From positions 54,353-118,352 of the forward strand of contig JASKLF010000001.1 in the NCBI GenBank assembly GCA_030153785.1: a DNA stretch of 64,000 nucleotides, given 5' to 3'. Position numbers and translations under genes: made by a program. The stretch is from a bacterium. GTDB lineage: Bacteria; Synergistota; GBS-1. Under the pieces are notes generated by a model. It saw nothing but the letters and a program-made list of their open reading frames with translations. It did not search any database and was not told where the DNA came from. Positions 1,186 through 53,769 of the stretch are shown piece after piece; positions within the stretch are counted from its first letter, which is position 1, and every line of letters starts with the position of its first letter.

Positions 1186-1189
1186 AAAA

Positions 1190-1214
1190 GGGCCACACGG
1201 TTAGCGTGTGGCCC
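1190..1214. terminator. GC-rich hairpin (GGGCCACAC..GTGTGGCCC) between convergent genes. Likely rho-independent terminator of the por operon, possibly bidirectional.
   Basis: 9-bp perfect stem with an A-run on the plus side, which becomes a T-run for the minus-strand transcript. It sits just after the porB stop. Confidence 0.6.
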
Positions 1215-1232
1215 TTCTAATCTATCTAAATA

Positions 1233-2162
1233 CTACACAGTTTCTCCGCACATCCTCAGAACGTAACTCCACTCTCTATCAACGTTCTTTTGTATTTCGT
1301 CTATAAGGTGACGGTTTTCAGGTTTAAATAGATGGCGGAATCTTCCTTGCGGCTTCAGGAACTCCTCGATAGGTTTCTTCTCCTTGGGCTTATAAGAAAG
1401 CTTCCATTCATCGTTTATAACCTCGAATACAGGCCAGAAGCAAGTATCAACAGCAAGCTTACAAATTTTAACCATATCAGCAGGGTTAACCCTCCAAAAC
1501 CTTACGCAAGGAGCAAGCACGTTGATGAAAGCAGGTCCCGGTGTTTCAATAGCCTTTCTAACCTTGTTAACCAGGTCAAGCGGGTTGTGCAAGGTCGTTT
1601 GAGCAACATAAGGAATATGATGGCCTGCAACTATAGCAGTAAGGTCTTTCCTCCACTGCATCTTACCAGGGATAACCTTACCAGCAGGAGCAGTAGTGGT
1701 ATCAGCACACATTGGAGTTCCTCCAGACCTCTGAGCACCTGTATTCATGTATCCCTCATTGTTATAGCATATATACACGAAATCGTGACCCCTCTCAAGA
1801 GCTCCAGAAAGAGCCTGAAAACCTATATCGTAAGTTCCACCATCTCCACCGAAAGCTATAAACTTCACCTCTTTATCTATCTTACCCTTCTTCTTCAAAG
1901 CCTTGTATGCAGCCTCAGCTCCTGATATTGTAGCTGCCGCATTTTCAAAAGCATTATGTATCCATGGTACCCTCCAAGCAGTGTAGGGATATATGGTCGT
2001 AGAAACCTCAAGACACCCCGTAGCACAAGAAACAACTACAGGCTCATTAACCGCAAGCATCACAAGTCTTGCAGTTAAGGCTGCACCACACCCAGGACAT
2101 AGCCTATGTCCATATGCAAGTCTCTCTTCCCTCTTAAGGAGATCTCTAACGGTTAAAGGCAT
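1233..2162 (-). CDS. porB: Pyruvate:ferredoxin (2-oxoacid) oxidoreductase, beta subunit (TPP-binding)
   Basis: The N-terminal Cys cluster (CPGCG...C...C) and the GDG...NN TPP motif are typical of the PorB family. It is the last gene of a G-D-A-B operon. Confidence 0.9.
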   Translation of the reverse strand: MPLTVRDLLKREERLAYGHRLCPGCGAALTARLVMLAVNEPVVVSCATGCLEVSTTIYPYTAWRVPWIHNAFENAAATISGAEAAYKALKKKGKIDKEVKFIAFGGDGGTYDIGFQALSGALERGHDFVYICYNNEGYMNTGAQRSGGTPMCADTTTAPAGKVIPGKMQWRKDLTAIVAGHHIPYVAQTTLHNPLDLVNKVRKAIETPGPAFINVLAPCVRFWRVNPADMVKICKLAVDTCFWPVFEVINDEWKLSYKPKEKKPIEEFLKPQGRFRHLFKPENRHLIDEIQKNVDREWSYVLRMCGETV

Positions 2163-2176
2163 CTAAGTACACCCCC

Positions 2177-3343
2177 TTATTCTCTAACTCCAAGGTACCT
2201 TTCTTCCTTGGAAATGTTACCACTCATAAGATCCTCGTACACGCTTCTTATAAGGGATGGAGGAACGTCTCTTCCGCCAAGGCCATAAATATAGGAAGCT
2301 AAGGCGGGTCTAGCTTTGGCATCATAGAGCGCCGATTTTACCTCACAGAATAGTGGAGCCTCTGCACCTATAGAATAGGCTCTATCCAATACCGCGACGG
2401 CCTTCTTGCCTTCTAACAGGCGAGCGATTTCCTCACCAGGAAATGGACGGAAAAGCCTTATCTTAAGCAAACCAACCTTCTTTCCCTGAGCCCTTAGTTC
2501 CTTGACCACATATTTGGTAGTCCCTGCGGTTGAAGACATAACAACTATTACATAATCCGCGTCGTCTAAATAGAAACCTTCTACCTTGGGATATTTTCTC
2601 CCCGTTAGTTTCGATAGCTCCTCAGCTACCTCATCATAAACACGTGGAACCTGTTTCATCGCTTCAAATTGTTGACGTTTATGCTCAAAGTAGTAATCGG
2701 TGAGAGCCAGAGGTCCATAAGTCTTAGGGTTATCGGTATCAAGCAACGGATACAAAGGCTTATATTCCCCAACAAACTTTTTAACTTCCTCATCATCCAA
2801 AACCTCAACAGACTCAACACCATGAGAGGTTATAAACCCATCCTGACAGACCATAACGGGCAAGCGAACGTCCTCGTGCTCTGCAAGCCTAATTGCTAAA
2901 AGAGCATGATCATATACTTCTTGAGCAGTTTCGCTATAAATTTGAATCCAGCCGGAGTCTCTCTCTGCCATAGCATCGGAATGGTCACAATGTATATTTA
3001 TGGGAGCAGAAAGAGCCCTGTTAACCACTCCCATAACTATGGGAAGCCTTGTGGAAGAAGCTATATAGACAATCTCATGCATGAGAGCCAACCCTTGCGA
3101 AGATGTGGCAGTCATAACACGTGCACCAGCTGCAGCAGCGCCAACACAAGCAGACATCGCAGAATGTTCGCTTTCAACCGTTACGAGTTCCGTATCCACA
3201 AGCCCATCGGCAACGAACTGGGCAAAAGTCATCATTATCTCCGTCTGGGGAGTTATAGGATAAGCAGCAACCACATCCGGATTTATCTGTCTCATAGCTT
3301 CAGCAAAAGCGGCATTTCCTGTTAAAGGAATTCTCTTCTTCAT
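2177..3343 (-). CDS. porA: Pyruvate:ferredoxin oxidoreductase, alpha subunit
   Basis: 388 aa with the PorA-family N-terminus and operon context between porD and porB. Confidence 0.9.
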   Translation of the reverse strand: MKKRIPLTGNAAFAEAMRQINPDVVAAYPITPQTEIMMTFAQFVADGLVDTELVTVESEHSAMSACVGAAAAGARVMTATSSQGLALMHEIVYIASSTRLPIVMGVVNRALSAPINIHCDHSDAMAERDSGWIQIYSETAQEVYDHALLAIRLAEHEDVRLPVMVCQDGFITSHGVESVEVLDDEEVKKFVGEYKPLYPLLDTDNPKTYGPLALTDYYFEHKRQQFEAMKQVPRVYDEVAEELSKLTGRKYPKVEGFYLDDADYVIVVMSSTAGTTKYVVKELRAQGKKVGLLKIRLFRPFPGEEIARLLEGKKAVAVLDRAYSIGAEAPLFCEVKSALYDAKARPALASYIYGLGGRDVPPSLIRSVYEDLMSGNISKEERYLGVRE

Positions 3344-3642
3344 TTCTCTTCACCTTCCTCAAAAAGCGATTCTGGCTTCATCTCTATCGCATTTTTGGGG
3401 CATATACTTGCACAAACGCCACAACCTTTACAATAGTCATAGTTTATGCCACTTACTCTGTTGTCAATAACAAGAATAGATGCATCTGGACAGTGAAGCC
3501 AGCACATGTAGCAATTTATACACTTGTCCTTGTCCCATACTGGCCTTATGCTTCTCCACGTTCCCGTTTTATAATTAACGCTATTTCCCGCCTCAAGCAC
3601 TATTCCTCCTGGCGGAATATCTCTCCATCCTTTAAGACTCAT
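3340..3642 (-). CDS. porD: Pyruvate:ferredoxin oxidoreductase, delta subunit (2x[4Fe-4S] ferredoxin)
   Basis: 100 aa with two CxxCxxCxxxCP motifs (CINCYMCWLHCP, CKGCGVCASICP). Confidence 0.9.
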   Translation of the reverse strand: MSLKGWRDIPPGGIVLEAGNSVNYKTGTWRSIRPVWDKDKCINCYMCWLHCPDASILVIDNRVSGINYDYCKGCGVCASICPKNAIEMKPESLFEEGEEK

Positions 3643-4220
3643 TCTCCTTGCACCTCCTCATAACCACGGCGCATAGCCCTCACATTGGCCTCCACCTTAT
3701 CGGGAGGAAGCTTCCCTTCGAACTTACTCTTAAAGTGTTCCTCAAAAGCTTCAAGAGGGATCTCTCCTATTATTTTGGCAAGTGCACCAAGCATAGGCGT
3801 GTTAGGGAAGTTTACCTTCATCTCTTCAAGCGCAATTTTCGTAGCATCAAGGGTATAGACCTTCTGAGTCTTAAGGCCAAGCTTCTTTTTAACCTCTGCA
3901 GGAGTATGGGGCGTGTTTACAAGAATAATCCCTTCATCCTTCAACCCCTCTGTAACATTTACCGCTGTGAGCAAAGTTGGGTCAACCACCACAACTATAT
4001 CAGGATTTTCTACTTGACAGTGGAGAAGAATCTCCTCCTTACTTAACCTATTGAAAGCCTTCATCGGCGCTCCTGACCTTTCCGCACCATACTCCGGAAA
4101 GGCCTGAATGTGATATCCTCGGTCAAAAAACACTTCGGCCAAGATTTGAGCTCCTGTCTTGGCTCCCTGGCCTCCTCTACCATGCCAACGTACTTCGATG
4201 AGTTTTTCCAAGACTTTCAC
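3639..4220 (-). CDS. porG: Pyruvate:ferredoxin oxidoreductase, gamma subunit
   Basis: 193-aa PorG-family protein. GTG start with an AGGAGGTG RBS. First gene of the operon. Confidence 0.85.
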   Translation of the reverse strand: MKVLEKLIEVRWHGRGGQGAKTGAQILAEVFFDRGYHIQAFPEYGAERSGAPMKAFNRLSKEEILLHCQVENPDIVVVVDPTLLTAVNVTEGLKDEGIILVNTPHTPAEVKKKLGLKTQKVYTLDATKIALEEMKVNFPNTPMLGALAKIIGEIPLEAFEEHFKSKFEGKLPPDKVEANVRAMRRGYEEVQGE

Positions 4221-4251: not shown

Positions 4252-4280
4252 ATTATACACTTATAATCCCAACTTTTCAA
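4252..4280 (-). promoter_or_regulatory. Sigma70-type promoter of the por operon. On the minus strand it reads TTGAAA, a 17-nt spacer, then TATAAT.
   Basis: The reverse complement of 4252-4280 reads TTGAAAagttgggattataagtgTATAAT. This is a near-consensus -35/-10 pair about 30 nt upstream of the porG GTG. Confidence 0.7.
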
Positions 4281-4283: not shown

Positions 4284-4916
4284 CTAAACCTCTTCTATAA
4301 CAAAATTGGACAAATGTTTGGTTTCATTAAGTAGAGTTAAAGTGAATCCTCTTTCCTTCCTATATTCAACAATGCTATAAGAGGCTGTATCGAAATGAAA
4401 CTTCCAGAAATATGGTTTTTTAATCTCAAACATGGCTGCAAAAAGAGGTTTTAAAACCGCTCTATGAGTAACGATAACAACCGTTTCCCCTCTGTGTTCT
4501 TCCAATATCCTTAACAATGCAGAATATGAACGCTCTTTCACATCGTCCACTTTTTCAGCTCCAGGAAGATTAAGATTTTCTGGAACCGTGACCCAAATTC
4601 CCCACTCGCGCGGATATTCTCTCTCTATTTCCTTTTTAACCCTTCCTTCCCATAAACCAAGATTTATGTTATTGAACCCTTCTTCAACTATGGGAGTTAA
4701 ACCATGAGGCTCTCCAACGATTTCAGCTGTTCTTAATGCTCTCGAAAGAGGACTAGAATAAACAACATCTAATTTAAATCTCTTTAGCTCATCCCTTAAA
4801 GCTTCCGCTTGCTTAATACCGTTTCCATTTAAAGGGAAATCTATTCTCCCTCTGAAAAGGCCTGCTCTGTTTCCCTCACATTCTCCATGCCTTATAAAGA
4901 TAAGAGTTGTTTTCAA
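4284..4916 (-). CDS. Histidine phosphatase superfamily protein (phosphoglycerate mutase / CobC-like)
   Basis: N-terminal RHG motif (IFIRHGECEGN) and a downstream SPLxRA motif. 210 aa. It is the distal gene of the lactate cluster transcription unit. Confidence 0.8.
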   Translation of the reverse strand: MKTTLIFIRHGECEGNRAGLFRGRIDFPLNGNGIKQAEALRDELKRFKLDVVYSSPLSRALRTAEIVGEPHGLTPIVEEGFNNINLGLWEGRVKKEIEREYPREWGIWVTVPENLNLPGAEKVDDVKERSYSALLRILEEHRGETVVIVTHRAVLKPLFAAMFEIKKPYFWKFHFDTASYSIVEYRKERGFTLTLLNETKHLSNFVIEEV

Positions 4917-4955
4917 CCTTTCACCTCCTCATTTGAAATCCTTTTTAAAATTATA

Positions 4956-6257
4956 TCAATTATCTTTTAAAATAGGTAGCAATTTATGTCCCTCTGGAAT
5001 AATATATGTAGAAGGATGCCTGCCAAGTATCGCTCTCGCCTTCATTATTCCTTCCTCTAAGCTCTTTATAGGCTCCATACCTGTTTTCCTGACTTCCTCA
5101 TCAGGTAAATTAGAAAGAAGGTAGACTTTAAATTTCTCAGCAATTAGCGACATGTGAAAAGCCATATGCCCTCCTATAGTATACTCCCTCCTCAAAGCTT
5201 TCTCTCTTTCTTCATTATTACTATAATCTGTAAAAGTTCTATAAAAGTCCTCGTTTCCTATCCCTTCCCTACACTCAGATAAGGCTATTATTACTCCTCC
5301 CTCCTTGGTAGCCCTCTCAGCATTATACAGAGTCTTGTAAGTCTGATATAGGTTGATATCTTCGGGATAGCCGCCACAGGAAACAATGGTAAGCTCAGCA
5401 AGCTCGTCTATTTCTACCCCGTGAAACTCGTTATAGACCTTGGTTCCTTCTTCATGGGCAGTTATATAGTCTCCAGCAACCACATGGGATATCTTTCTTC
5501 CGGGACCAACAATAACATTAAGTAGAAAATCTGGTTTCAAAAATTTAGCCACTTCAATGGCATCCTCGCTTACCCTATTACCCTGCATAACTCCCGCACA
5601 TACAGTGGGATCAAGCCCCCTGCCCGGCTCCGGGTGAAGTGCAAGCCCATGGTTCTTCATTATGGACCTTCGAGAAGAAATTCCAGGCATTATAGACTTC
5701 TTACCTCCACCGAAACCATACAAGAAATGGTAAACAATCCCACCGGTCAAGATGACCCTATCAGCTTCAAAAGCTTTTTTGTTAAGCTCCACAGGAGTTC
5801 CATAAGTGGTTTCACCAAGATAAACGAGCTCTCCTTCTTCTCGGGCATGATGATTGTATATTCTTCCCTTAAGAAACTCATAAGCTTTATCGCCCAAAAT
5901 TATTCTAAATTCATCTTCAGTTTGTTCCCTATGATCTCCATTGGCACAAAGCGCAAATATATCTTCATCCTCTATTCCAGCGCCTTTAAGTTCCTCTATA
6001 ATGAGAGGAACAAAAATGTTGTGCCTAACCCAGAGTCGAGTGATATCGCTAAAGATTATACAAATCCTTTCCCCCTTTCTTACCAACTCCCTAAGGGGAG
6101 GAGAATCTACCGGGTTAGCAAGAGCCCTAAGAATAATATCCTCCTCGCTAAAAGGTTCTGGCATCTCCTTAGGGCGGAGTATTCCCATAAGATCATCCAA
6201 CTCATACTCGAATTCTACAAAACCGCTACCAAAAGCCAATTTAAAAGTTTCCTTCAT
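4956..6257 (-). CDS. larA: LarA-family (DUF2088) nickel-pincer-cofactor-dependent 2-hydroxyacid racemase. Probable lactate racemase, LctF-like.
   Basis: 433 aa, the size of LarA. It has conserved His-containing segments (NHHARE, KNHGLALHPE) and a GGGKKS lysine segment matching the LarA cofactor-tethering region. It sits next to the LDH and Etf genes. Confidence 0.7.
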   Translation of the reverse strand: MKETFKLAFGSGFVEFEYELDDLMGILRPKEMPEPFSEEDIILRALANPVDSPPLRELVRKGERICIIFSDITRLWVRHNIFVPLIIEELKGAGIEDEDIFALCANGDHREQTEDEFRIILGDKAYEFLKGRIYNHHAREEGELVYLGETTYGTPVELNKKAFEADRVILTGGIVYHFLYGFGGGKKSIMPGISSRRSIMKNHGLALHPEPGRGLDPTVCAGVMQGNRVSEDAIEVAKFLKPDFLLNVIVGPGRKISHVVAGDYITAHEEGTKVYNEFHGVEIDELAELTIVSCGGYPEDINLYQTYKTLYNAERATKEGGVIIALSECREGIGNEDFYRTFTDYSNNEEREKALRREYTIGGHMAFHMSLIAEKFKVYLLSNLPDEEVRKTGMEPIKSLEEGIMKARAILGRHPSTYIIPEGHKLLPILKDN

Positions 6258-6269
6258 GCTTTTGCCCCC

Positions 6270-7688
6270 TCAGAATAACTTGCCGGGGTTCATTATGTTA
6301 TTAGGATCGAAAAGGTTTTTAACTTTCCTCATAAGCTCAATCTCCTGCCTTTTAGTTTCGCTTAAAACCCTCTTTTTAAGAAAGCCTATACCGTGCTCAC
6401 CGCTTACAGCACCACCAAGCTCTGCAGCCTTTAGAGCTATCTTATCAAGAATCTCCTCGGAAAGGTATCTCCAATCTTCTGGAGAAACGTTCGTCGGCTT
6501 TAAAGGGGCAGGATGGAGATTCCCATCGGCAGCATGGGCCGCAACGGGAATCTTAACATCATAAGTTCTTGAAAGCTCTTCTATAAAATTCATCATCTCA
6601 GGGATCTCGGAGGTAGGAACTACCACATCTCCCGTAGAAACATACGGATCCACTGCCCTAAGAGCTTCAAGCCATGTTCTTCTAACCTTCCATATATTCT
6701 CTGAAGCGCTTCTATTGTCCGCTATAAAAACATCAAAAGCTCCGTTATTTAAAAGGGCTTTGCCTACCCTTTCATAAACTTCTTCCAATTCCTTCCTGTT
6801 ATTTCCTTCAAGCTGGACTATTAAAAAGGCCTCAGCTTCATCATGAAAAGGAAGGGTCGTGTTATTATATTCGATTCCAAGCTCAACGGAAACTCTATCT
6901 ATAAACTCCAAGGCTGAAGGGAGCTCCTTGCTCTCCACCAAAACCAAGGGAACACTATCTATGGCATCTTCTACCCTTCTAAACGGCACTAATAAATCTA
7001 CAGTTTTTCCAGGCAAAGGTATCAAGTTCAAGAATATCTTAGAAAAGACGGCCAACGTACCCTCGGATCCCACAAAAAACTTAACGAAGCTATATCCACT
7101 GGAATCTTTCCTTCTTTTACCTCCAAACTCGATTATATCCCCATTAGGAAGAACGGCCTCTATGCCCAAAACGTGGTGTCCCGTATTCCCATACTTTATA
7201 ACTTTGCTTCCCCCTGCATTGGTTGCCACATTCCCTCCGATGAAGCTCGTTTCAACGCTCATAGGATAACCCGCATAATATAAACCCTCCTCCATCACCC
7301 TTTTACATAAATCATTAGTAACAACACCTGGTTCAACCACTGCAACAAGATTCTTTTTATCCACCTCTATTATTCTGTTCATCCTTTCCATAGAAATAAC
7401 TATACCACCAAACAAAGGAACACAACCGCCCGCAAGTCCGCTCCCCGCTCCTCTCGGCGTAACGGGAACTCTTTCCTCGTTAGCGAGTTTCAAGATCTTC
7501 GATATTTGATCAGAACTTTCAGGTTTAACAACCACATCAGGCATATGGGCATAATACTTCCCACCAGATTCATCGTGAGAATAAGCTTCAAGAGCTTCCT
7601 TATTTTCATAAATAACTCCTTTCTCCCCTACTATCCTACGAAGCTCTTTGACTAAAGAGGGAGTAACTTTACCAAACTCATTAACCAT
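6270..7688 (-). CDS. FAD-linked oxidase of the GlcD family. Probable FAD-dependent lactate dehydrogenase of the Etf-coupled Lct complex, LctD-like.
   Basis: 472 aa with an FAD-binding PCMH domain signature (PRGAGSGLAGG) and a C-terminal FAD-oxidase domain. Its start overlaps the etfA stop. Confidence 0.8.
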   Translation of the reverse strand: MVNEFGKVTPSLVKELRRIVGEKGVIYENKEALEAYSHDESGGKYYAHMPDVVVKPESSDQISKILKLANEERVPVTPRGAGSGLAGGCVPLFGGIVISMERMNRIIEVDKKNLVAVVEPGVVTNDLCKRVMEEGLYYAGYPMSVETSFIGGNVATNAGGSKVIKYGNTGHHVLGIEAVLPNGDIIEFGGKRRKDSSGYSFVKFFVGSEGTLAVFSKIFLNLIPLPGKTVDLLVPFRRVEDAIDSVPLVLVESKELPSALEFIDRVSVELGIEYNNTTLPFHDEAEAFLIVQLEGNNRKELEEVYERVGKALLNNGAFDVFIADNRSASENIWKVRRTWLEALRAVDPYVSTGDVVVPTSEIPEMMNFIEELSRTYDVKIPVAAHAADGNLHPAPLKPTNVSPEDWRYLSEEILDKIALKAAELGGAVSGEHGIGFLKKRVLSETKRQEIELMRKVKNLFDPNNIMNPGKLF

Positions 7689-8703
7689 TCTTTTTGCCCT
7701 CCTTGTATTCCCTAAGCCTCTCGATCAGTAAAGGAACTATTTCAAAGAGATCCCCCACGATGCCCAAATCACACACCTTAAATATATTAGCTTCCGGATC
7801 ACTGTTTATGGCAACAATCGTCTCAGAAGAAGACATGCCCGCAAGGTGTTGAACAGCACCAGAAATGCCTATTGCAAAATAAAGCTTAGGAGCAACGGTT
7901 TTCCCACTTAAACCAACCTGGTGAGGATAGGATATCCATCCCATATCAACAGCCGACCTTGAAGCCCCAACTGCCCCACCTAATAGCTGAGCAAGCTCAT
8001 GAATTAGTCTGAAGTTCCTTTCCCCCTTTAACCCCTTTCCCCCAGCTACCACAATATCGGCTTCTTGAAGAGGTGTTTGCGAGGTCTCATCTTTTACAAA
8101 ATCTAAGATCTTGAACTTAGAAAGGTAAAATTCCTCGGGGTATTCTTTTACAATCACCTCTCCTTTACGGGATGTATCCTTGGATAGAGGTTTCCTCGAC
8201 CTCGGCCTAACGGTTGCCATCTGAGGTTTATGTTTAGGAGTTTTTATTGTGGCCATTACATTTCCACCTATCGCAGGTCTCGTTTGAAGAAGAAGACCTG
8301 TCTCGGGCTCTATATCGAGGCCAGTACAATCAGCGGTAAGCCCGGTCCCTATCCTCGTAGCAAGTATGGGCATAATAGTTCTACCCATCGTAGTAGCGGA
8401 GGCTATAAATATCTCCGGACTAAACTCCTTAACCAAAGCCTCAAGAATTCTGGAATATACATCCGGCTTAAAGTGGACCAAAGAAGGGTGATCAACCACG
8501 TAAACCTTATCCGCTCCCCTATATATGAGCTCCTTCACTTTCTCCTTAAGGCCATAACCTATTATCACGCTCGAGAGCTCAACATTGAGCTTGTCTGCAA
8601 GTTCCCTCCCCCAACTTAAAAGTTCATAAGAAACCGAGCTTATCTCACCGTCTCTCTGTTCTCCAAGCGTCCAAACACCCTTGAAAACCTCTTTCCCAAT
8701 CAC
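7681..8703 (-). CDS. etfA: Electron transfer flavoprotein, alpha subunit
   Basis: 340 aa with the EtfA N-terminal domain and C-terminal FAD-binding signature. Directly downstream of etfB. Confidence 0.85.
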   Translation of the reverse strand: MIGKEVFKGVWTLGEQRDGEISSVSYELLSWGRELADKLNVELSSVIIGYGLKEKVKELIYRGADKVYVVDHPSLVHFKPDVYSRILEALVKEFSPEIFIASATTMGRTIMPILATRIGTGLTADCTGLDIEPETGLLLQTRPAIGGNVMATIKTPKHKPQMATVRPRSRKPLSKDTSRKGEVIVKEYPEEFYLSKFKILDFVKDETSQTPLQEADIVVAGGKGLKGERNFRLIHELAQLLGGAVGASRSAVDMGWISYPHQVGLSGKTVAPKLYFAIGISGAVQHLAGMSSSETIVAINSDPEANIFKVCDLGIVGDLFEIVPLLIERLREYKEGKKNG

Positions 8704-8715
8704 AGTGCATCACCC

Positions 8716-9510
8716 CTATAATATCCCTTTGCTTTCAAGAAAACTTATAAGCTCGTCAACTGCTTCCTCAGGATTCTTCCCAGAAATTATCTTCCCGTTC
8801 CTCGATAGCTTAGGATAAAAGATCTTTACAACCCTCGTGGGAGAACCTTCAAGCCCTACAAAACTTCTATTTAAGTTTAGGTCATCAACAGTTAACACAG
8901 GAATTTGCATCTCTTTAGCTCGAAGCTTACCAGCAAGGTTAGGCAATCTTGGCTCATTTATCTCCTTAACAACGCTTAAGAGAACGGGTAATTCTGTTTC
9001 AACTACTTCGTATCCACCTTCCACAGCTCGCCTTACCCTTATATACCTTTCCTCAAGACGTTCTATCTTGCTAACATAAGTTAAAGCGGGAATATTAAGC
9101 CAAGAAGCAACGCTTGGTCCAACCTGACCTGTCTCTCCATCGGTAGCCCTTTCACCACAAAATATGAGGTCGAATCCCCCAAGATATCTAATAGCTCCCG
9201 AAAGGGCATATGCAGTTGCCCAAGTGTCAGAACCAGCGAGAAGCTTGTCAGAAAGGAGATATCCTTCATCGCATCCCATTGAAATAGCATCTTTAACCGC
9301 ATCAACCGCCATAAGTGGCCCCATCGAGATCACCGTTATCCTTGCATTACCACCCAATCTTTCCTTTACACGAACCGCCTCCTCGACAGCATACATATCC
9401 AGCGGGTTTAACTCTGCCTCCATCTCGGTTCTTATCATTGTTCCGGTCTTTTCATCCATCTTTACCTTATCTGTAGCCGGAACCTGCTTAACCAAAACGC
9501 ATATCCTCAC
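8716..9510 (-). CDS. etfB: Electron transfer flavoprotein, beta subunit
   Basis: 264 aa whose N-terminus MRICVLVKQVP...NPLDMYAVEEA is the canonical EtfB start. It overlaps the gntR stop by 4 nt. Confidence 0.85.
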   Translation of the reverse strand: MRICVLVKQVPATDKVKMDEKTGTMIRTEMEAELNPLDMYAVEEAVRVKERLGGNARITVISMGPLMAVDAVKDAISMGCDEGYLLSDKLLAGSDTWATAYALSGAIRYLGGFDLIFCGERATDGETGQVGPSVASWLNIPALTYVSKIERLEERYIRVRRAVEGGYEVVETELPVLLSVVKEINEPRLPNLAGKLRAKEMQIPVLTVDDLNLNRSFVGLEGSPTRVVKIFYPKLSRNGKIISGKNPEEAVDELISFLESKGIL

Positions 9511-10238
9511 AGCTCCTCCCTCCCCATCTCAGAAATTCTCCAAAGAACACCTTCCACATGCAACCTCATCAATTCCTCCACCTCTTTAGCTTTCCTCTGG
9601 ATAATAAGCTCCAGTATTTTCTCATGATCCTCAAGAGACTTTTCCATCACTCCCGTAATATAAAGAGACCTGAGTCTGTATGTGTTGATGTAAGATACAA
9701 TGCTTTCCAACATCCTGGAAAGTCTCTCATTACCCGATGAAAACCATATGAAGCGATGAAACTCGGCATCAAGCTCCGAATAAGCAATTACATCCCTTTC
9801 TTCCGCAACCTTCTTCATTCTCTCAAGTTTTCTCTTGAGATTCTCTATCTCCTCTGCTCCACATCTTTTAGCAAAAAGTTTAACTGCAAGTCCTTCTAAA
9901 ACGCTCCTTATCTGAAAAACGTTCTCTATATCCTTTAAAGAAAATTTCGTCACAAAAGCTCCTTGATTAGGAATAAGCTCAACTAATCCTTCAACAGCAA
10001 GACGACGTATAGCCTCCCTCACAGGAGTCCTACTTGTGCCTAACTGAGAAGCAAGCTGGGTTTCAACCAGTCTACTACCACCCTCTAACTCCCCTTTAAG
10101 AATTGCCTCTTTAATAACCCTATAAACTTTCTGATTTAAAGGCTCATCTCTTTCAACTTTCCCTAACGAAATTCCCTCATCACCTCCTGTATACTGTATA
10201 CAGTATACCATAAGGGGAGCAAAATAAAAAGCTTTCAA
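9507..10238 (-). CDS. GntR/FadR-family transcriptional regulator, LldR/LctA-like
   Basis: Winged-HTH (LASQLGTSRTPVREAIRRLAVEGLV) followed by an FCD-type C-terminal domain. The ORF-track start is a TTG overlapping the upstream stop. The first in-frame ATG, at about 10211, is the more plausible start and gives about 234 aa. Confidence 0.8.
   Translation of the reverse strand: MKAFYFAPLMVYCIQYTGGDEGISLGKVERDEPLNQKVYRVIKEAILKGELEGGSRLVETQLASQLGTSRTPVREAIRRLAVEGLVELIPNQGAFVTKFSLKDIENVFQIRSVLEGLAVKLFAKRCGAEEIENLKRKLERMKKVAEERDVIAYSELDAEFHRFIWFSSGNERLSRMLESIVSYINTYRLRSLYITGVMEKSLEDHEKILELIIQRKAKEVEELMRLHVEGVLWRISEMGREEL
10189..10208. promoter_or_regulatory. Perfect 20-nt palindrome GTATAC-T-GTATAC-A-GTATAC. 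Candidate GntR-family operator, likely autoregulatory for the lct cluster.
   Basis: Three GTATAC hexamers spaced by single nucleotides form a perfect inverted repeat lying across codons 2-8 of the gntR ORF. FadR-subfamily operators are palindromes with GT..AC cores. An AGGAGGTG Shine-Dalgarno-like motif follows immediately. Confidence 0.6.
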
Positions 10239-11331
10239 CGCAACAAATGAATATTACCAAGAGAAACATTTTTTAAACCCGCATTAACAGCTATTTCATA
10301 ACACCTATATGCTTGTTCTTTAGAGGTTAAAGGCAGGTCCTTCATATAAAATTGGGGGTAAAAGGCAAGCAATCTGTAAGGAATATTTTCATTTATCTTA
10401 GCAATAAAGGTAGCTATTCCTTCCACTTCCCTCTCATCCACATACCCTGGGACAAGAAGGGTACTAGCGATAAGGAGGGGAACCTCTGGTCTTCTTACAA
10501 TGTATTGAGCTACAAAACCAAAGTTATCCAGAATCTTTTTGTTCGAAACCCCAGTTAAAGCGATATGAAGGGCTTCGTTCCAAGCCTTAAGATCAAACTT
10601 AATGCATCCCCCGGAAAACAATGAAAGCTCCACAACATCTTTTAAAAGCCCTCTATTCATTAATCCATTGGTCTCCCAGCATATTCTTAAAATTCTTCCT
10701 TTCGTCTTTTGAATAGCTTCCCTCGAAACTTTTATAGCAAAAGGAAGCTGAGGAGAAGGATCACCCCCAAAAAAACATATGCAAGAAACCTTCGAATCGA
10801 TGGAAGCTAAAATCTCTTCCACCCTTTTAGTTTCAGGACTAAGGGCGAGCTTCTTAAACTGCCAATTTTGACAGAAAAGGCAATTTAAGCTACACGCATG
10901 GAAAAATACCGCTAAGTTATAGTAGCCATATTCAGGCCCACGCGCATAAGCATAATCAGGGTATCCGCAACCCGTGCCTCCAGGGCAAACCCAGTCGGCA
11001 ACACAATTCGTAGGGAGAGGGTCTAAATACCACGAAACCTTTGCCTCCCCGTAGGAAGGCCCCTTCAAGTTCTTTCCTATATTCCTTCTTAAGCCACAAA
11101 AGCCATACTCATCTTCCGGCACTTGACATTCATTAGCACATAAATTACACTTAATTCCCACAGGGCTTCTGGGAATGGGGAAAGGAAGGTTAAAGTAGGC
11201 TTTTCTGCTTTCCTGGTGGGCCTTCATAACAAACGGTAAGGCCTCTTGAGGAAAGTCTCTAATACAATCAACACAGACTCCTAATAACTGTGAAATAATA
11301 GGAACTTTCCTTTTACATATTTGGCAAATCA
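10235..11331 (-). CDS. Radical SAM protein of the PflX / PFL-activating-enzyme-like family, with an N-terminal CxxC...CxxC zinc-ribbon
   Basis: CSLNCLFCQNW matches the CxxxCxxC radical-SAM motif. The N-terminus carries CQIC...CVDC. The ORF track extends to 11491, but the ATG at about 11331 (MICQICKRK) with a GGGGGT RBS avoids overlap with the divergent gene at 11376. Confidence 0.7.
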
Positions 11332-11375
11332 TATTTACCCCCAACAAGGATTTTATCATAAGGGAGTGAGAAACA

Positions 11376-12317
11376 TTGAGGCGTTGTAAAATTTGCCAAA
11401 AGGAAGCGGTTGTTTTCTTCAAGTCACATAGAATATCCCTATGTGAGGAACATCTTAAAAGTTTTGTAGAAAAGAGAGTTAAGGAAGCCATTAAATCTCA
11501 TAAAATGATAAACAGGGGAGAAAAGATCCTGATTGCTGTCTCTGGTGGAAAAGATAGCTTAAGCTTATGGCAAATATTGACAAATTTGGGATACGAAGCT
11601 GACGGCATGTTTATCGACCTTGGAATTCCAGGATTTTCTCAAGAATCGTGGGAAAAATGTGAAAAGCTCTCCCGAAGACTTTCAAGGAAGCTATTTAAAA
11701 CGAGCTTAGAGGAAATCTTTGGCATGAACCTGCTTGATATAGCCAAATTGGAAAGAAGAGTTCCTTGCGCTTCCTGCGGAATGATAAAAAGATATATAAT
11801 GAATAATTTTGCCCTAAAAAACGGATATAAGGTTATAGCCACAGGGCATCACCTTGATGACGAATGCTCTATCCTACTCGGAAATGTTCTCAATTGGCAA
11901 GTAGAATACTTAAGGAGGCAAGACCCATCTCTCAAAGAGGAAAATGGGTTTGTAAGGAAAATAAAGCCACTTGTTTTATGCAGCGAAGAGGAGATAGAAA
12001 ACTATGCAAGAGTTATGAATATAGACCACGTGGGGAAAGGATGCCCTCTCTCAAAAGGAGCAACGTCTCACTTTTACAAAAGCATAATGAACCAAATAGA
12101 GGAGAAAATGCCTGGAACAAAACTTCGGTTCTATAAAGGCTTTCTAAAAATAAAGAAAGATACCTTCGGGGATGAAAAACCAGCTGAGCTTAAACCTTGC
12201 ATTAGATGTGGCTATCCTACAACTGCTGAGATCTGTTCCTTTTGCAGACTTCACGAGAGGATCAAGACCAAAATTTCGCAACAAAATCCTGAAAAGATGG
12301 AGGAACCCTTATCCTAA
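11376..12317 (+). CDS. PP-loop ATPase of the TtuA/TtcA/NcsA family. Probable tRNA 2-thiolation enzyme with two zinc-fingers and a CxxC...C Fe-S site.
   Basis: SGGKDS PP-loop; N-terminal CKIC...C...H; internal CASCG and GHHLDD; C-terminal CIRCG...CSFC. TTG start with an AGGGAG RBS. Confidence 0.75.
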   Translation: MRRCKICQKEAVVFFKSHRISLCEEHLKSFVEKRVKEAIKSHKMINRGEKILIAVSGGKDSLSLWQILTNLGYEADGMFIDLGIPGFSQESWEKCEKLSRRLSRKLFKTSLEEIFGMNLLDIAKLERRVPCASCGMIKRYIMNNFALKNGYKVIATGHHLDDECSILLGNVLNWQVEYLRRQDPSLKEENGFVRKIKPLVLCSEEEIENYARVMNIDHVGKGCPLSKGATSHFYKSIMNQIEEKMPGTKLRFYKGFLKIKKDTFGDEKPAELKPCIRCGYPTTAEICSFCRLHERIKTKISQQNPEKMEEPLS

Positions 12318-13350
12318 CAAAGGAAGAACTCAAAGAAGCAAAGTTCCGACCGCTTACAGAGAGAATCCCTCTTTCCTTAAGAAAGGAGTAAAGGTCTTCT
12401 CCATCCTTCCAAAGAAGAAAAATGGGAACCTCAAGAGCCGTTTTGGAAAAGCTATAACCTTTATCATAAAGAAATTCTAAGATCTTCTTCTTTATCTCCC
12501 TTACACGAGCCTTGCTTTGTTCTAAAAAAGAGAGATCTTTCAATGCTCTTATGGCAATCTCTTCAGAAAACGAAGATATTTCGAAAGGCAGGTTTACCTT
12601 AGAATACAGTTCTCTCAGCTCCCTACCTCTTACAACAGCGTAACCCACCCTTAGGCCAGCTAAACCAAATCCTTTAGAAAAAGATCTAACAACTATCAGG
12701 TTAGGATAATTAAGGTTTATCGCAGAATTATTGTCTTCCATAAAATCGCCGTAAGCTTCATCTACCACTACCACCACTCCCAGTTTAAAAGCCTTATCTG
12801 TCAAAAGCTTTATAGCTTCAAGAGGAATCACTTGCCCCGTGGGATTATTAGGATTGTCTATATAAAGAACGGTATGTTTTTCAGAAAGCCTATCCATTAG
12901 CTCCTCGAATCGAAACTCAAACCCGTCTTCAGCCTTTAAAGCCACGCTCTCATATACTCCACCGCAAACTTTAACCTCCGTCACATATTCTGTAAACTGG
13001 GGAGAATACCCTAAAACTAAGGATCCTTCCTTAAGAAGCGCTTTATTTATCTTCTCTAAACACCCCATGGAGCCAGAACCAATGAACACATCGTTTTCTT
13101 CGAATAGGTTACCCCACCGCTCTACAATGGCCTTTCTTAAACGATGATAATAGGGATCTGGATAGTCACCCATGTTAATCCTTTCCAAGGTCAGCGATTC
13201 TAAGATACCGCGGGGAAAACCAAAGGGATTTTGCCCCAGGGAGCAATCAAGAAGATCGCTCCCTGGGGTTTCCTCTTCAACATAACTCTCCCTTTTTAAG
13301 GAAAGTAAGGATTTTCTAATCTTACTTTCGTAAAGCCTAAAGTTTACCAT
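12262..13350 (-). CDS. Class I/II PLP aminotransferase of the HisC/CobD family. Histidinol-phosphate aminotransferase-like, or threonine-phosphate decarboxylase-like.
   Basis: 362 aa with DEAYGDF and the [18 protein letters not shown]-lysine motif. Its start overlaps the stop of the upstream class III aminotransferase. Confidence 0.75.
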
Positions 13351-14735
13351 CCTCTTAAGAACCTCAAAACATCGTCAGAAACCTTCCCATCACGAACATC
13401 CTTCATAGATGACTTTATTATGTCCAGAGCTTTATCAAGCTCTTCCTCCTTTATAATTAAAGGAGGTGCTATCCTCAAAACGTTACCTCCCTTACCAAAG
13501 GTAACCAATATAAGTCCTCTCTCCCATGCTCTCCAACAAATCTTTAAAGCGGTATTCCTGTCAGGCTCCTTAGTCTCCCTATCTTTAACTATGTCTATCC
13601 CTATCAGAAAAGCTACCCCTCTGATATCGCCGATGAACTCGAACTCATCCTTCATCCTGCTAAATTCATCTAAAACCCTTTTGCCAAGCCTGTTTGCCCT
13701 TTCAAGAAGACCCTCTTCCTCAATGGCTTCAATCGTAGCCAAAGCAGCCCTTGCATTGACAGCATGTCCGCAGTGAGTAAAAACGAAAAGAGGTGGAGGA
13801 ACGCTTTCCATAATTTCTTCCTTACCAATAGTAGCCGAAATGGGCATTCCACCCCCCAAAGCTTTAGCGCTAACTATGATATCTGGAACAACCTCGAAAT
13901 TCTCTATTGCCCACCATTTACCAGTGCGACCCATACCAGTTTGTACCTCTTCATCAATCAATACAATGTTATATTTATCGGCTAAATCTCTTAGGCCCAC
14001 GATAAATTCCTTTGGAGGAATAACTACTCCCGCATCCCCCTGCATAGGCTCTAAAACGATACCAGCAACTTCTCCATCAAGTTCTTTAATTTTACTTTCC
14101 ACCTCTGCCAAGGCTTTAGAGCTCAAAGCGCTGGGGTCCCTATAACCATCGATCCCCCATTTATTCCTATATGGATCAGCGTATTCAACAAAGTGGACAT
14201 CGGGTATAGGAAAGACCTTGCCCCTCACCTCAGATTTAACGATCCCTGTTAGCGAGAGGGAACCGTAGGTTGTGCCATGATATGAATCCTTAAAAGCTAT
14301 AATATGTCTCCTACCCGTGTAAGCCCTTGCAGCCTTTATAGCAGAGTCAACCCCATCGGAACCGGAAAAGCCGAAAGTAACTTTTTTCTTAAAATTACCC
14401 GGTGTTATCTGGGTAAGCCTCTTTGCCAATTCTACAGGTGCTTCCTCATAAAGATAGGCAATCGTATAGTTTAAAACCTTTTCTATTTGGTCCCTTATAG
14501 CTGCTAAAACCTTAGGATGCCTATGACCTACATTGTAAACACAAGCGCTGGTTAAAAAGTCTATGTATTCATTCCCGTCCTTATCCCAAACCTTAGCCCC
14601 CTCAGCCCTTTCAACGCATAAGGGATAATACTTGAGCCCGGAAGCGGAAGCCACATATTCATCAGAATCTTTGACCCTCTTTAAGCTCTCATCAACCTTA
14701 AGAGAAACATATTTCTCTATATCCTCCCACCGCAT
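13344..14735 (-). CDS. Class III PLP aminotransferase of the GABA/ornithine/omega-amino acid transaminase family
   Basis: 463 aa with the typical class-III layout and a [15 protein letters not shown] motif at the PLP-binding region. Confidence 0.8.
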
Positions 14736-14757
14736 GAAAACACCTCCCCTTTTGTTT

Positions 14758-15903
14758 TTAAGCTTTTGACCAAAACTCTTTTTTCCAATCAGGATTTATT
14801 ATCCTTATAATTCCAACCGTAACAAGAGGGATAAAGTAAATGGCGAAGAAAACCCAAGCCAATATCCCATATCCCTTCGCCACAAGAGCTATTATTCCAT
14901 AGCGAGCAAAAAGTATAGAAATTATGGCTATTACAGTAGCAATTATTCCCTCCTGAGTTCTGGATAATCCAACCCCCTTTATCTCCTTAAGCTGAACCTC
15001 AACCCTTCTTACTATTGCATGAATCATGCCTGTTCCGGTTTCTATCAATGTCCAAAACACGGCAAGAACATAAAATCCTCGAAGCCAAAGCCCACCTATG
15101 GTTTTCATTATTTCATACCATGGAACCGGAGCATTAACAATCTCAGGTCTCGTGTAAAATCCAAGGAGGCATAACCACGTCAAAAAGAAAGCCATACTTA
15201 CGAGCAAAGAGGAAGTTAACCCCGCCATGAGGGAATCGCTTCTCCTTTCAAGTCTGTCAATGGTAAATAAAACAGCAGGTAAGGCAGGCATATTATAAGC
15301 GAAATACTTAATTCCAGCTATAGAAGCATCCCAAGGAGTCTCCGCGCTAAGCCCTTTCTCAAAAGCCATTCCGATGTCTCCCCAAGCATACTTAAGCGTA
15401 ATACCCCACAAAATAGCATACATAGCATAAAGAATAACAGTACCGATAACCTCAAACCATTCTATAGCAAACCTTCCGTAAAAATGAAGAATTCCTATAG
15501 CTCCTATGACCACCACCGCACTAAGCATATACGGGAGTTTAAGCATGTCTTTCATTATATTTGCAGCCGCAGAACCAACCACAGCTATAACTATGATTGC
15601 CAAAACAATAAATGCTATATCAAATACAGGCCAAAACTTCCATAGAAGACCTTTCACCCAGGTTCTGTAATCGAAAGTTTTATTTATCCTCGCAAGCTCA
15701 TAGGAAAGAAAGGCAGCAATGAAAAAACCAAGCGTTATAAAGACGATTGAGTATACACCATTAACCCCAAACCTACCCCCGAATTCCATTACCTCTCTTC
15801 CTGTCGTAAATCCCCCGCCCATATAAATAGACTGAAAGACTATGGCAGGAAGAAACCAACGGAAAAAAATACCATACTTTCCTTTGCTCTCCACTTTACT
15901 CAC
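14758..15903 (-). CDS. YkvI-family polytopic membrane transporter (amino acid / amine permease-like)
   Basis: 381 aa and about 11 TM segments. The N-terminal [13 protein letters not shown] motif is characteristic of the YkvI family. First gene of a 3-gene operon with two aminotransferases. Confidence 0.6.
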
Positions 15904-15921
15904 CTCTCCTCTTAAAATTCT

Positions 15922-15948
15922 GGGGAGAGAAAGCCTCTTTCTCTCCCC
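15922..15948 (-). terminator. Hairpin GGGGAGAGAAAG-cct-CTTTCTCTCCCC, likely terminator downstream of ilvD
   Basis: 12-bp perfect stem in the 57-bp gap between the ilvD stop and the start of the next operon. Confidence 0.55.
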
Positions 15949-15960
15949 GGATCAAATTCT

Positions 15961-17631
15961 TTATTCGCCAAGCAATATTGCACCCTTATTAGCCGAGGTA
16001 ACAAGCTTAGCATATCTGGCTAAATAGCCACTTTTGAACTTTGAGGGTGGTGGAGACCACTGAGCGAGTCTTCTTTTTATCTCCTCATCTGGCACGCGAA
16101 GGGTTAACTTCCTGTTAGGAATATCTATCTCTATCTCATCACCCTCTTCAACTATGGCTATAGGACCACCTCTTTGGGCTTCAGGAGAAACGTGCCCTAT
16201 AACGGCACCTCTACTTGCTCCGGAAAACCTACCATCGGTAATCAAAGCTACACTTCCATCAAGTCCCATGCCTGCAATTGCAGAAGTAGGACCGAGCATT
16301 TCTCTCATACCGGGACCACCTGCCGGCCCTTCGTACCTTATAACAACTACATCTCCCTCCCTAATCTTGCCACCATATATGGCCTCTATGGCCTCCTCCT
16401 CCGAGTTAAAAACTCTCGCCTTACCAACATGATAAAGCATTTCCTTCTTAACCGCAGACTCTTTAACGACAGCACCATCGGGAGCAAGGTTCCCCCAAAG
16501 AATAGCAAGCCCACCCCTTGGACTATAGGGGTCTTCAACGCTTCTTATCACATTTCTATCAAGAATTTCAACATCCTTAATAAGCTCCCCCATGGTCACC
16601 CCCATTACAGTCATGGCATCCAAGTGGAGAAGGCCGAGCCTTGAAAGCTCTTTCAAAACAGCAGGAATTCCTCCTGCCCTATTTAAGTCCTCTATGTGCT
16701 GCTTGCTGGCGGGGGACAATTTACATATGGTGGGAGTTTTTCGCGAAAGTTCATCAAATTTCGTTAACGGAAGCTCCACCCCAGCTTCATTAGCAATGGC
16801 AGTAAGGTGTAAAACTGAATTAGTAGAACCACCAAGGGCGAGATCCAAAACAATGGCATTCTCAAAGGCCTTTTCGGTCATTATATCTCTTGCCTTTATA
16901 CCCTGTTTCACCATTTCCACTACCCTAACCCCGGCTTTAAAAGCTATTCTCTTCCTTATACCATCAAAGCCAGCTGGAACCGTGCCATTGCCAGGAACCG
17001 CCATTCCTAAACCTTCGGACAAACAATTCATGGTATTTGCAGTGAACATCCCCGCACAGGAGCCACAACCGGGACAAGCAATCATTTCCAAGCCTTCAAG
17101 CTCCTTCTCTGTAATCTCCCCTTTTTTCTGCTTTCCAACCCATTCAAAAACGGTAGAGAGGTCAACACTCTCTCCTTTGTAAATAGAGGAAAACATTGGT
17201 CCTCCACTAACTATCACAGCAGGGATATTAAGGCGAGCAGCAGCCATAAGCATGCCCGGAATTATCTTGTCGCAATTAGTAATAAGTACAAGCCCATCAA
17301 ACTGATGAGCGTTAGTCATAAGCTCTATAGAATCGGCAATTACCTCTCTTGATGGGAGAGAACACCTCATTCCTTCGTGCCCCATCGCTATTCCATCGCA
17401 TATTCCTATTACGGGAAACTCTACTGGTGTCCCCCCAGCATGCATAACTCCTCTTTTTGCAGCATAGGCAATGAAGTCAAGGTGAACATGTCCAGGAATT
17501 ATTTCATTGGCAGCGTTAACAATACCTATTATGGGCTTTTTAAGCTCTTCCGGGGAATAACCTGCAGCATAAAAGAGAGATCTATGGGGAGCCCTTTCAG
17601 CTCCTTCTATAACCTTTCTGCTTCTTAACAT
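15961..17631 (-). CDS. ilvD: Dihydroxy-acid dehydratase
   Basis: 556 aa with a canonical IlvD/EDD N-terminus and Cys ligand region (CDGIAMGH). GGGGAGGTG RBS. Confidence 0.95.
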
Positions 17632-17663
17632 AAAAACACCTCCCCTTTAACATTAACAGAATA

Positions 17664-17688
17664 GCGGGGTGACTTTAAGTCACCCCGC
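17664..17688 (-). terminator. Hairpin GCGGGGTGAC-tttaa-GTCACCCCGC, terminator of the TRAP operon
   Basis: 10-bp GC-rich stem followed on the minus strand by a T-rich tract. It sits between the dctP stop and the ilvD start. Confidence 0.6.
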
Positions 17689-17731
17689 TAATAGCTTTTC
17701 CATAAATTATGCAAGACTCACAAGCCCAAGA

Positions 17732-18775: not shown

Positions 18776-18812
18776 AATACACTACCTCCTTTCATTTTTT
18801 ATAATTTACCTT

Positions 18813-21669: not shown

Positions 21670-21685
21670 AAGGAGGGGGACCAAC

Positions 21686-31296: not shown

Positions 31297-31312
31297 AATG
31301 TCCTACCTCCCT

Positions 31313-32380: not shown

Positions 32381-32390
32381 CCCTTCAGAC

Positions 32391-33329: not shown

Positions 33330-33343
33330 TGAAGAAACCTCCT

Positions 33344-50923: not shown

Positions 50924-50996
50924 AACAACTACACCTCCTTTCTATGTGCTATTATAACATAAATTAACTTAAAATCTTCTCATAAAGGCATATCTG

Positions 50997-51005
50997 TGGT
51001 ATTAT
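50997..51005 (+). promoter_or_regulatory. Extended -10 element (TGgTATTAT) upstream of the thr-operon leader gene. A second TGcTATTAT lies at about 50948-50956.
   Basis: Two TGnTATTAT motifs in the 123-bp divergent intergenic region. An AAGGGGTG RBS precedes the ATG at 51047. Confidence 0.45.
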
Positions 51006-51046
51006 TTATTAAACGCAAATCTCCTTAAAAGGGGTGAATATCAAAG

Positions 51047-52843: not shown

Positions 52844-52859
52844 GAGGTGATACTTAGAG

Positions 52860-53768: not shown

Positions 53769-53769
53769 G

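Follow-up and report, generated by a model that had tools for sequence, protein, structure and literature searches.

The DNA analyzed here (the window) is a 64-kb stretch of contig JASKLF010000001.1, assembly GCA_030153785.1, from a bacterium of the Synergistota, and it carries a putative lactate utilization cluster. Six open reading frames (ORFs), all on the minus strand, encode a GntR-type regulator, the electron-transferring flavoprotein (Etf) subunits EtfB and EtfA, a FAD-dependent lactate dehydrogenase (LDH), a LarA-superfamily racemase and a histidine phosphatase (table 1). Neighboring ORFs overlap or are separated by 8-39 nt, and the stop codon of the regulator gene overlaps the start of EtfB. 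Coordinates and Pfam domains agree with an earlier note on this DNA, which had recognized in the first five genes an lct-type module (regulator, EtfB, EtfA, GlcD-like LDH, and racemase). The Pfam scan covered the ORFs of the window judged to be genes: every large minus-strand ORF between 1233 and 20662 and, past 20 kb, the main ORFs with 100 aa or more. Database entries with identical proteins come from uncultured bacteria and bear the labels "Synergistetes bacterium" and "bacterium 42_11".

Table 1. Features of the lactate locus and of the transporter genes discussed in the text (window coordinates)
Feature	Position	Strand	Basis or remark
GntR + FCD regulator, LctA-like	9507-10238	-	Pfam GntR 67 bits, FCD 98.7 bits
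EtfB, 264 aa, bifurcating type	8716-9510	-	Pfam ETF
EtfA, 340 aa, alpha-FAD domain	7681-8703	-	Pfam ETF + ETF_alpha
GlcD-type FAD D-2-hydroxyacid (D-lactate) dehydrogenase, LctD-like, 472 aa	6270-7688	-	FAD_binding_4 + FAD-oxidase_C
LarA-superfamily (nickel-pincer-dependent) 2-hydroxyacid racemase, 433 aa	4956-6257	-	Lar_N (227 bits) + LarA_C
Histidine phosphatase, branch 1, 210 aa	4284-4916	-	His_Phos_1 191 bits
porC, four-subunit pyruvate:ferredoxin oxidoreductase	3639-4220	-	Pfam POR
porD, same enzyme	3340-3642	-	Pfam Fer4
porA, same enzyme	2177-3343	-	Pfam POR_N + PFOR_II
porB, same enzyme	1233-2162	-	Pfam TPP_enzyme_C
Palindrome GTATACTGTATACAGTATAC, perfect, 20 nt, candidate operator	10189-10208		between the radical-SAM stop codon and the regulator coding region
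Extended -10-like motif TGATATAAT, candidate phosphatase promoter	4950-4958	-	overlaps the racemase stop codon
Sigma-70-like promoter TTGAAA-17-TATAAT before porC	4252-4280	-	11/12 consensus positions
Strong intrinsic terminator after porB	1186-1218	-	14-bp stem, 8 G-C pairs, then a T-run
DctQ/DctM/DctP TRAP transporter	17732-20662	-	Pfam DctQ, DctM, DctP

The closest characterized counterpart is lctABCDEF of Acetobacterium woodii (Ldh-EtfAB, the permease LctE, and the racemase LctF; 7QH2). Both loci share the order of GntR-type regulator, EtfB, EtfA and GlcD-like dehydrogenase, and in both a LarA-superfamily racemase comes after the dehydrogenase. The window differs in having no permease and in the porCDAB and phosphatase genes appended to the module. 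Homologous loci, numbered here with the prefix L, were collected by a metagenome scan with an alignment (80 loci) and by a single-protein scan of genome contigs (3 loci). The GBS-1 loci L006/L019, with a racemase 70% identical to that of the window, have an identical gene order, including the radical-SAM gene upstream of the regulator, the phosphatase gene and porCDAB. In the relative L021 (racemase 68% identical, dehydrogenase 81%), the full A. woodii order is found (GntR-EtfB-EtfA-dehydrogenase-lactate permease-racemase), which upholds the likeness to A. woodii drawn in the earlier note.

Lct clusters are widespread and well described (PMC8914356, PMC5910564). In Aminiphilus circumscriptus, a cultured member of the Synergistetes, an Etf-LDH-LarA operon without a lactate permease has already been reported (PMC5910564). 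By the description in that paper, it shares with the window the phylum, the content of GlcD, EtfAB and LarA, and the missing LldP. The locus is an ordinary Etf-dependent lactate-to-acetyl-CoA cluster and a further case of a described type, with three modest peculiarities: the racemase belongs to an uncharacterized LarA clade, EtfA has no ferredoxin domain, and the por genes lie directly downstream.

The last of these changes the extent of the locus. The cluster had been thought to end at 4284, but porCDAB (1233-4220) follows directly on the same strand. The subunits of its product, a pyruvate:ferredoxin oxidoreductase (POR), fit pyruvate-specific models better than the Vor, Kor and Ior models. 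In detail, PorA scores 552.5 against PorA_Arch (cut-off 550) and 374.5 against the VorA-type model, and PorB scores 376.5 compared with 295.8 for VorB, whereas PorC and PorD are slightly under their equivalog cut-offs but above the subfamily models. All four are syntenic in GBS-1 with 82-94% identity. Downstream of the regulator gene, a convincing terminator is found only after porB. Since porCDAB comes directly after the cluster and the only strong terminator follows porB, the locus is read as encoding the conversion of lactate through pyruvate to acetyl-CoA.

The phosphatase set aside, the locus probably encodes the conversion of DL-lactate to acetyl-CoA. Control of gntR-etfB-etfA-ldh-larAH, where larAH denotes the racemase gene, would lie with a GntR/FCD repressor that probably acts at the 20-nt palindrome before its own gene. 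The LarA-superfamily enzyme, with a nickel-pincer cofactor supplied by genes elsewhere in the genome, would convert L-lactate to D-lactate. The LctD-like FAD dehydrogenase would then oxidize D-lactate to pyruvate and pass the electrons to a two-FAD, bifurcating-type EtfAB, which, after the A. woodii model, would reduce 2 NAD+ with the co-oxidation of reduced ferredoxin. The four-subunit POR would convert pyruvate to acetyl-CoA and CO2, regenerating the reduced ferredoxin used by EtfAB. The histidine phosphatase, with a promoter of its own, would have no part in the pathway.

For each lactate, Ldh-EtfAB of A. woodii uses up one reduced ferredoxin (PMC9232219). POR yields one reduced ferredoxin per pyruvate, and we infer that its adjacency to Ldh-EtfAB closes the ferredoxin loop. 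Because POR would regenerate what EtfAB consumes, ferredoxin would cycle and the net reaction would be lactate + CoA + 2 NAD+ -> acetyl-CoA + CO2 + 2 NADH. A linkage of lactate dehydrogenase and POR genes is also known from DVU3025-3033 of Desulfovibrio vulgaris (PMC4481167, PMC6456213). As in the window, one locus there holds both enzymes and covers the route from lactate to acetyl-CoA. The Desulfovibrio operon reportedly differs in having another type of lactate dehydrogenase without Etf, a single-polypeptide POR, a permease together with pta/ack, and no racemase.

Several points weigh against the pathway as drawn. There is no lactate transporter in the operon and no larBCE in the window, both as the earlier note had stated: no Lactate_perm, LarB, LarC or LarE domain was found by Pfam among the scanned ORFs of the 64 kb, whereas the orthologous clusters L009, L015 and L021 have a Lactate_perm gene. 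The racemase stands outside group 1 of Desguin 2020, the only LarA group associated with Etf, COG0277 dehydrogenases and lactate permease, and the only one tied to Etf-LDH clusters and shown to racemize lactate efficiently. The nearest curated model, LarAH10, describes racemases of hydrophobic 2-hydroxyacids (PMC11770544), and the protein is below that cut-off too. In A. woodii, removal of the ferredoxin domain of LctC abolishes confurcation (PMC9232219), and EtfA of the window is without that domain. The D-lactate dehydrogenase-ETF pair of Fusobacterium nucleatum is non-bifurcating (PMC12630350). Finally, por and the phosphatase gene are each preceded by a conserved promoter-like motif, so that lct and por perhaps do not form one transcript, and the linkage of lct and por occurs only in the window lineage and GBS-1.

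The dehydrogenase agrees well with the proposed function. Its best match in the PDB is 7qh2_C, the A. woodii LctD (364 bits, ~40% identity). The metal ligands H377, H384 and E422, the catalytic base H423 and the carboxylate-binding R328 are retained, as are L80, L332 and D346. Two of the ten pocket residues differ from LctD, namely E344, replaced by T, and Y386, replaced by A. The same T344/A386 pair is found in the dehydrogenases of L021 and L023, each of which is directly followed by a lactate permease gene, and therefore the changes are compatible with lactate.

The placement of the racemase is less conventional. The description of the 433-aa protein as of the LarA/DUF2088 type holds at the level of the superfamily domains but not for the canonical LarA model (NF033504), against which it scores 312 (cut-off 460). 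Higher scores were given by LarAH10 (NF052525; 476.7, cut-off 540) and by the malate racemase model MAR-LarAH6 (392.8), and no cut-off of an NCBIfam LarA family is reached. The residues for binding of the nickel-pincer nucleotide (NPN) and for catalysis (D72, R75, H108, H174, K184, H200, Y294, Q295, and K298) are all present. At the specificity positions, the protein has F175-L176, Y297 and G-H-M, which does not correspond to the canonical signature F175-F176...V297...D356-W358-(T/E/Q)359. According to the published signatures, F-F, V and D-W-T/E/Q mark lactate racemases, G-H-K malate racemases, and P-F/Y-V racemases of hydrophobic 2-hydroxyacids (PMC11770544).

In comparison with the reference sequences of the Desguin 2020 dataset, the racemase shows 38-42% identity to groups 9, 10 and 11 and an identity of 33% to the group 1 reference. 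A. woodii LctF (Awo_c08750) is a member of group 1 and is likewise 33% identical. In a neighbor-joining tree, a distance tree without support values, the racemase and its homologues down to ~45% identity formed a clade of their own beside groups 9, 10 and 11 and far from group 1. These distances, the low LarA score and the separate clade contradict the supposition that the racemase is of the A. woodii kind. Across the clade, D72, R75, H108, H174, K184, H200, Q295 and K298 are conserved as NPN-binding and catalytic residues.

The best-scoring curated family for the window racemase comprises the LarAH10-type enzymes (Megasphaera elsdenii LarAH10, LarAH52, and LarAH66; PMC11770544, PMC7583248). 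They share with it the Leu at the position of LarA F176 and identical catalytic and NPN residues, but the identity is 36-42%, and P-F/Y-V in the family contrasts with Y297 and G-H-M in the window clade. Moreover, the window clade is linked to lactate permease and Etf-LDH genes, whereas no such link was reported for group 10 in the LarAH10 study. The clade is a coherent branch of the LarA superfamily with, as far as could be established, no characterized member. It lies below the curated cut-offs of every named LarA family, and the substrate of one member would improve function prediction throughout the superfamily.

The gene neighborhoods of the clade point to lactate. Besides GBS-1 and L021, the loci L007/L022 (racemase 63% identical) consist of EtfB-EtfA-dehydrogenase-LarAH only, L009 (59%) matches L021 in gene content, its Lactate_perm gene coming after the dehydrogenase, and L015 (47%) has GntR and Lactate_perm genes beside those of the racemase and the dehydrogenase. 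Out of the 80 metagenome loci, 26 encode a protein at least 48% identical to the window racemase, and the clade signature was present in all those with a readable motif (25/25). Among these 26 loci, an LctD-like dehydrogenase was found in 20, a lactate permease in 10 and Etf in 6. The respective numbers among the 54 loci with more distant LarA homologues, which show other signatures, were 3, 1 and 1. These co-occurrence counts are only rough because the set includes redundant loci and many short contigs.

Two other arrangements were met in the scan. In L014/L027 (metagenome Ga0209121_10001506; racemase 50% identical), the racemase gene precedes those for EtfB, for a 394-aa EtfA that has a Fer4 domain at its N-terminus, and for a dehydrogenase that is more distant (37%). 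This module comes after genes of the sugar-acid type (FGGY kinase, 2-Hacid_dh) and may have a different substrate. A recurrent trio of dehydrogenase, LarAH and lactate permease, with no Etf nearby and with the signature GG-Y/F-M, occurs in soda-lake sediment metagenomes (L036, L038-L042, L044), which suggests that the clade also serves Etf-independent D-lactate dehydrogenases.

Since the clade adjoins LctD-like dehydrogenases, lactate permeases and Etf genes, lactate stays the best substrate call, and guilt-by-association argues strongly for lactate as its physiological substrate despite the position in the family tree. The nearest characterized relatives are promiscuous, so a wider range of small 2-hydroxyacids is possible. 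Evenly balanced for us is the further proposal that the clade is a second physiological lactate racemase lineage apart from canonical LarA, with F175-L176, Y297 and G-H/Q/Y/F-M instead of D-W-T. It would have been recruited into Etf-LDH/lactate-permease clusters from the branch of hydrophobic 2-hydroxyacid/2-hydroxyglutarate racemases, and would work here with an EtfA lacking the ferredoxin domain and with the adjacent POR, ferredoxin cycling between both enzymes.

Alternatively, the module might act on another small or hydrophobic 2-hydroxyacid (2-hydroxybutyrate, 2-hydroxyisovalerate, or phenyllactate) from amino-acid fermentation, the oxidoreductase taking the matching 2-oxoacid. The affinity of the racemase to LarAH10 and to groups 9-11 rather than to LarA and group 1 would fit this, as would the two changed pocket residues of the dehydrogenase and the nearby genes for aminotransferases, ilvD and a branched-chain amino-acid transporter. 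We regard it as unlikely. Members of the clade, and dehydrogenases with T344/A386, are encoded directly beside lactate permeases, the POR subunits fit pyruvate models better than Vor models, with PorA above its cut-off, and the amino-acid genes nearby belong to separate gene strings.

With lactate as the preferred substrate, the next question is the fate of its electrons. Both Etf subunits gave about twice the score with bifurcating Etfs (CarDE, Thermotoga maritima, A. fermentans, C. difficile, and LctBC) as with human or Paracoccus ETF. For EtfB, the solved structures CarD and LctB scored 206 and 193 bits against 78-80 bits for human ETF-beta; for EtfA, CarE and T. maritima EtfA scored 312 bits and human ETF-alpha 164 bits. 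The beta-FAD motif of EtfB reads D-G-E-T-G-Q-V-G-P, compared with D122-G-D124-T125-A-Q127-V128-G-P130 in A. woodii, including one conservative D->E change. EtfB also retains the SPT anchor; in A. woodii, mutation of this anchor uncouples the enzyme (PMC9232219). Scores and motif favor the bifurcating type proposed in the earlier note, and no grouping with non-bifurcating Etfs was seen. The N-terminal [4Fe-4S] ferredoxin domain is absent from EtfA, whose alignment with CarE and LctC begins at their residue 66-67, past the Fe-S domains.

This absence is an argument for a non-confurcating Etf, in which electrons from the dehydrogenase would go to another acceptor, as in the Ldh-ETF-Bcd system of F. 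nucleatum (PMC12630350), or to a membrane oxidoreductase. The Fusobacterium system is a demonstrated non-bifurcating pair and, as in the window, consists of a GlcD-type D-lactate dehydrogenase with the Etf encoded next door, the dehydrogenase donating its electrons to the Etf. However, the Fusobacterium Etf is canonical, with AMP in the beta subunit, and feeds Bcd, whereas the window has an EtfB with the beta-FAD motif and no bcd gene close to it. Neither Bcd nor Etf-quinone oxidoreductase genes were found among the scanned ORFs of the window. Furthermore, Bcd-Etf complexes bifurcate without a ferredoxin domain (PMC9232219), and the recognition motif, the anchor and the much closer relation of both subunits to bifurcating Etfs make the non-confurcating alternative quite improbable. 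Judged from these sequence features, confurcation by the Ldh-EtfAB of the window is likely. An Etf-LDH without the ferredoxin domain is a natural test of whether confurcation generally needs that domain.

The histidine phosphatase was the other feature that set the cluster apart. It clearly belongs to branch 1 of the superfamily, and its motifs RHG, SPLxRAxxTA and THR were recognized by inspection of the sequence. It attains the cut-off of no equivalog, with scores of 152 for PspA (cut-off 350) and 141.6 for CobC (cut-off 162.9). Orthologues with 55-61% identity are common in unrelated phyla (Calditrichia, WOR-3, and Aminicenantes), and the three inspected (3/3) were in unrelated neighborhoods. 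Among Etf-LDH-LarAH loci, only those of the window lineage and GBS-1 (79% identity) have the gene beside that of the racemase; it is absent from the others examined (L007, L009, L014, L021, and L022). The 9-mer TGATATAAT is identical at the same position in GBS-1 (L006), where the flanking spacer differs. Similarly, both hexamers of the promoter-like sequence before porC are kept in GBS-1 and the spacer has diverged. Co-transcription of the phosphatase with lct, as formerly assumed, is no more than possible. Most simply, the region would consist of three neighboring units (lct, the phosphatase gene, and por), with possible read-through between them.

A role of the phosphatase within the system, either in the dephosphorylation of phospholactate or phosphoglycolate or in the processing of a nucleotide-type cofactor (nickel-pincer nucleotide or flavin), is very improbable. 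In favor of such a role, GBS-1 has the gene at the equivalent place between larAH and porC, no terminator flanks it, and there is the weak similarity to the ribotide phosphatase CobC. Against these stand its absence from the five other loci, the orthologues in unrelated neighborhoods, the extended -10 motif of its own, and a known Lct and Lar biochemistry in which no step requires a phosphatase. By its distribution, it is probably a housekeeping passenger between two operons and outside the pathway.

Elsewhere in the window, at 29689-34549 (minus strand), genes are found for an NhaC/DcuC-like transporter, an alanine-racemase-N-domain protein, an ornithine/aspartate carbamoyltransferase and a cofactor-independent phosphoglycerate-mutase-like (PhosphMutase/Metalloenzyme) protein. 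The last of these makes a phosphoglycerate-mutase role of the histidine phosphatase unnecessary.

The reductive direction, in which pyruvate would be turned into lactate and coupled to ferredoxin reduction by NADH (bifurcation) as a redox sink in amino-acid fermentation, is scarcely credible: the A. woodii enzyme is reversible in vitro (PMC9232219) and the operon is without an importer, but the reverse rate in A. woodii is ten-fold lower (PMC9232219), the adjacent POR fits pyruvate consumption, and a racemase, together with the lactate permease of the relatives, under a GntR/FCD regulator fits catabolism. In the oxidative direction, which is preferred, an uncultured and probably thermophilic lineage of Synergistetes likely oxidizes both lactate isomers to acetyl-CoA through a low-energy Etf route. 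This bears on the syntrophic turnover of lactate in oil reservoirs, hot springs and digesters. The general understanding of the Lct system is unchanged by the locus.

The regulator is 60% identical to its counterpart in the syntenic GBS-1 locus. The start of its gene is ambiguous between a TTG at 10238, which gives the longest ORF (243 aa) and lies in the stop region of the upstream gene, and the ATG at 10211 chosen by gene callers, which is located at the palindrome (10189-10208). The homologues in L006 and L021 have later starts. After the strong ribosome-binding site AGGAGGTG, the only in-frame candidate for a start is an ATT codon, and an out-of-frame ATG opens a 5-codon ORF. Translation probably begins at 10211 or further downstream.

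The palindrome GTATACTGTATACAGTATAC occurs once in the window, where 0 matches are expected by chance. Its core ACTGTATACA is kept at the equivalent position in GBS-1 (L006) and L021, that is, in three lineages together with the window; in L021 it comes after a TTGACT-17-TATAAT sigma-70 promoter. A second copy was sought before porC, the phosphatase gene and the TRAP genes and across the window, and none was found. The palindrome looks like operators of the GntR family, and because of this likeness the operon is likely to be autoregulated, with the GntR/FCD regulator binding the palindrome as candidate operator.

Directly upstream of the regulator gene, at 10235-11491 (minus strand; probably 10235-11332), a radical-SAM protein with a Cys-rich N-terminus is encoded. 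It shows a weak likeness to the AmmeMemoRadiSam/PflA-activase type (85 bits, cut-off 220) and is syntenic in GBS-1 with 71% identity. Despite this synteny, the gene (10235-11332) was rejected as the head of the operon and is taken as separate, because the conserved palindrome, and in L021 also the promoter, intervenes before the regulator gene. A PP-loop gene at 11376-12317 was considered as a LarE-like sulfur transferase and rejected: its match is to the tRNA thiolase TtuA/NcsA (290 bits), and no LarE model was matched.

For the uptake of lactate, the earlier note had pointed to a tripartite ATP-independent periplasmic (TRAP) transporter at 17.7-20.7 kb. The DctPQM genes are indeed there by their Pfam domains. 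The best solved relatives of DctP are the lactate-binding TTHA0766 of Thermus thermophilus (131 bits), an unnamed family-7 binding protein, 4pet (127 bits), 5cm6 (112 bits), and the ketoacid-binding 7ug8 (109 bits), so that the nearest one binds lactate. Against this, the other family-7 binding proteins, the ketoacid binder among them, have scores not far below. In addition, the TRAP genes are part of another gene string, which also includes ilvD and two aminotransferase genes, and an opposite-strand gene lies between that string and the cluster. The adjacency is not kept in GBS-1, where no DctP homologue was found within 9 kb of the cluster. From its sequence relatives, a function of the TRAP transporter as an importer of lactate or of 2-oxoacids, outside the lct transcription unit, is plausible but weak.

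The string containing the TRAP genes runs uninterrupted on the minus strand from 12262 to 20662 and comprises DctQ-DctM-DctP, IlvD (829 bits), a 381-aa protein (14758-15903) without a Pfam or NCBIfam match, and the two aminotransferases. One of the latter is of class III (best PRK08360/leucine-methionine racemase-like) and the other is a HisC/CobD-like enzyme of class I/II. The string may be an operon for the uptake and transamination of 2-oxoacids or dihydroxyacids. Divergent from it, on the plus strand at 20812-22045, are genes for a KaiC-domain protein (thermo_KaiC_2, 398 bits) and then a 119-aa ORF without a family match.

Other parts of the window carry further gene groups. Between 24831 and 28146 (minus strand), a DisA_N diadenylate cyclase, a YbbR-domain protein and a phosphoglucosamine-type mutase form the classic cdaA-cdaR-glmM arrangement, with a TPR protein encoded upstream in the same orientation and TrkA/TrkH downstream. 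At 50051-51778, two ORFs without a Pfam match diverge from each other, one of 290 aa (minus strand) and one of 243 aa (plus strand). Just after them, at 51788-57192, there is an operon of the threonine/aspartate pathway, which includes a PALP enzyme, a GHMP kinase, aspartokinase, ASD and an aminotransferase.

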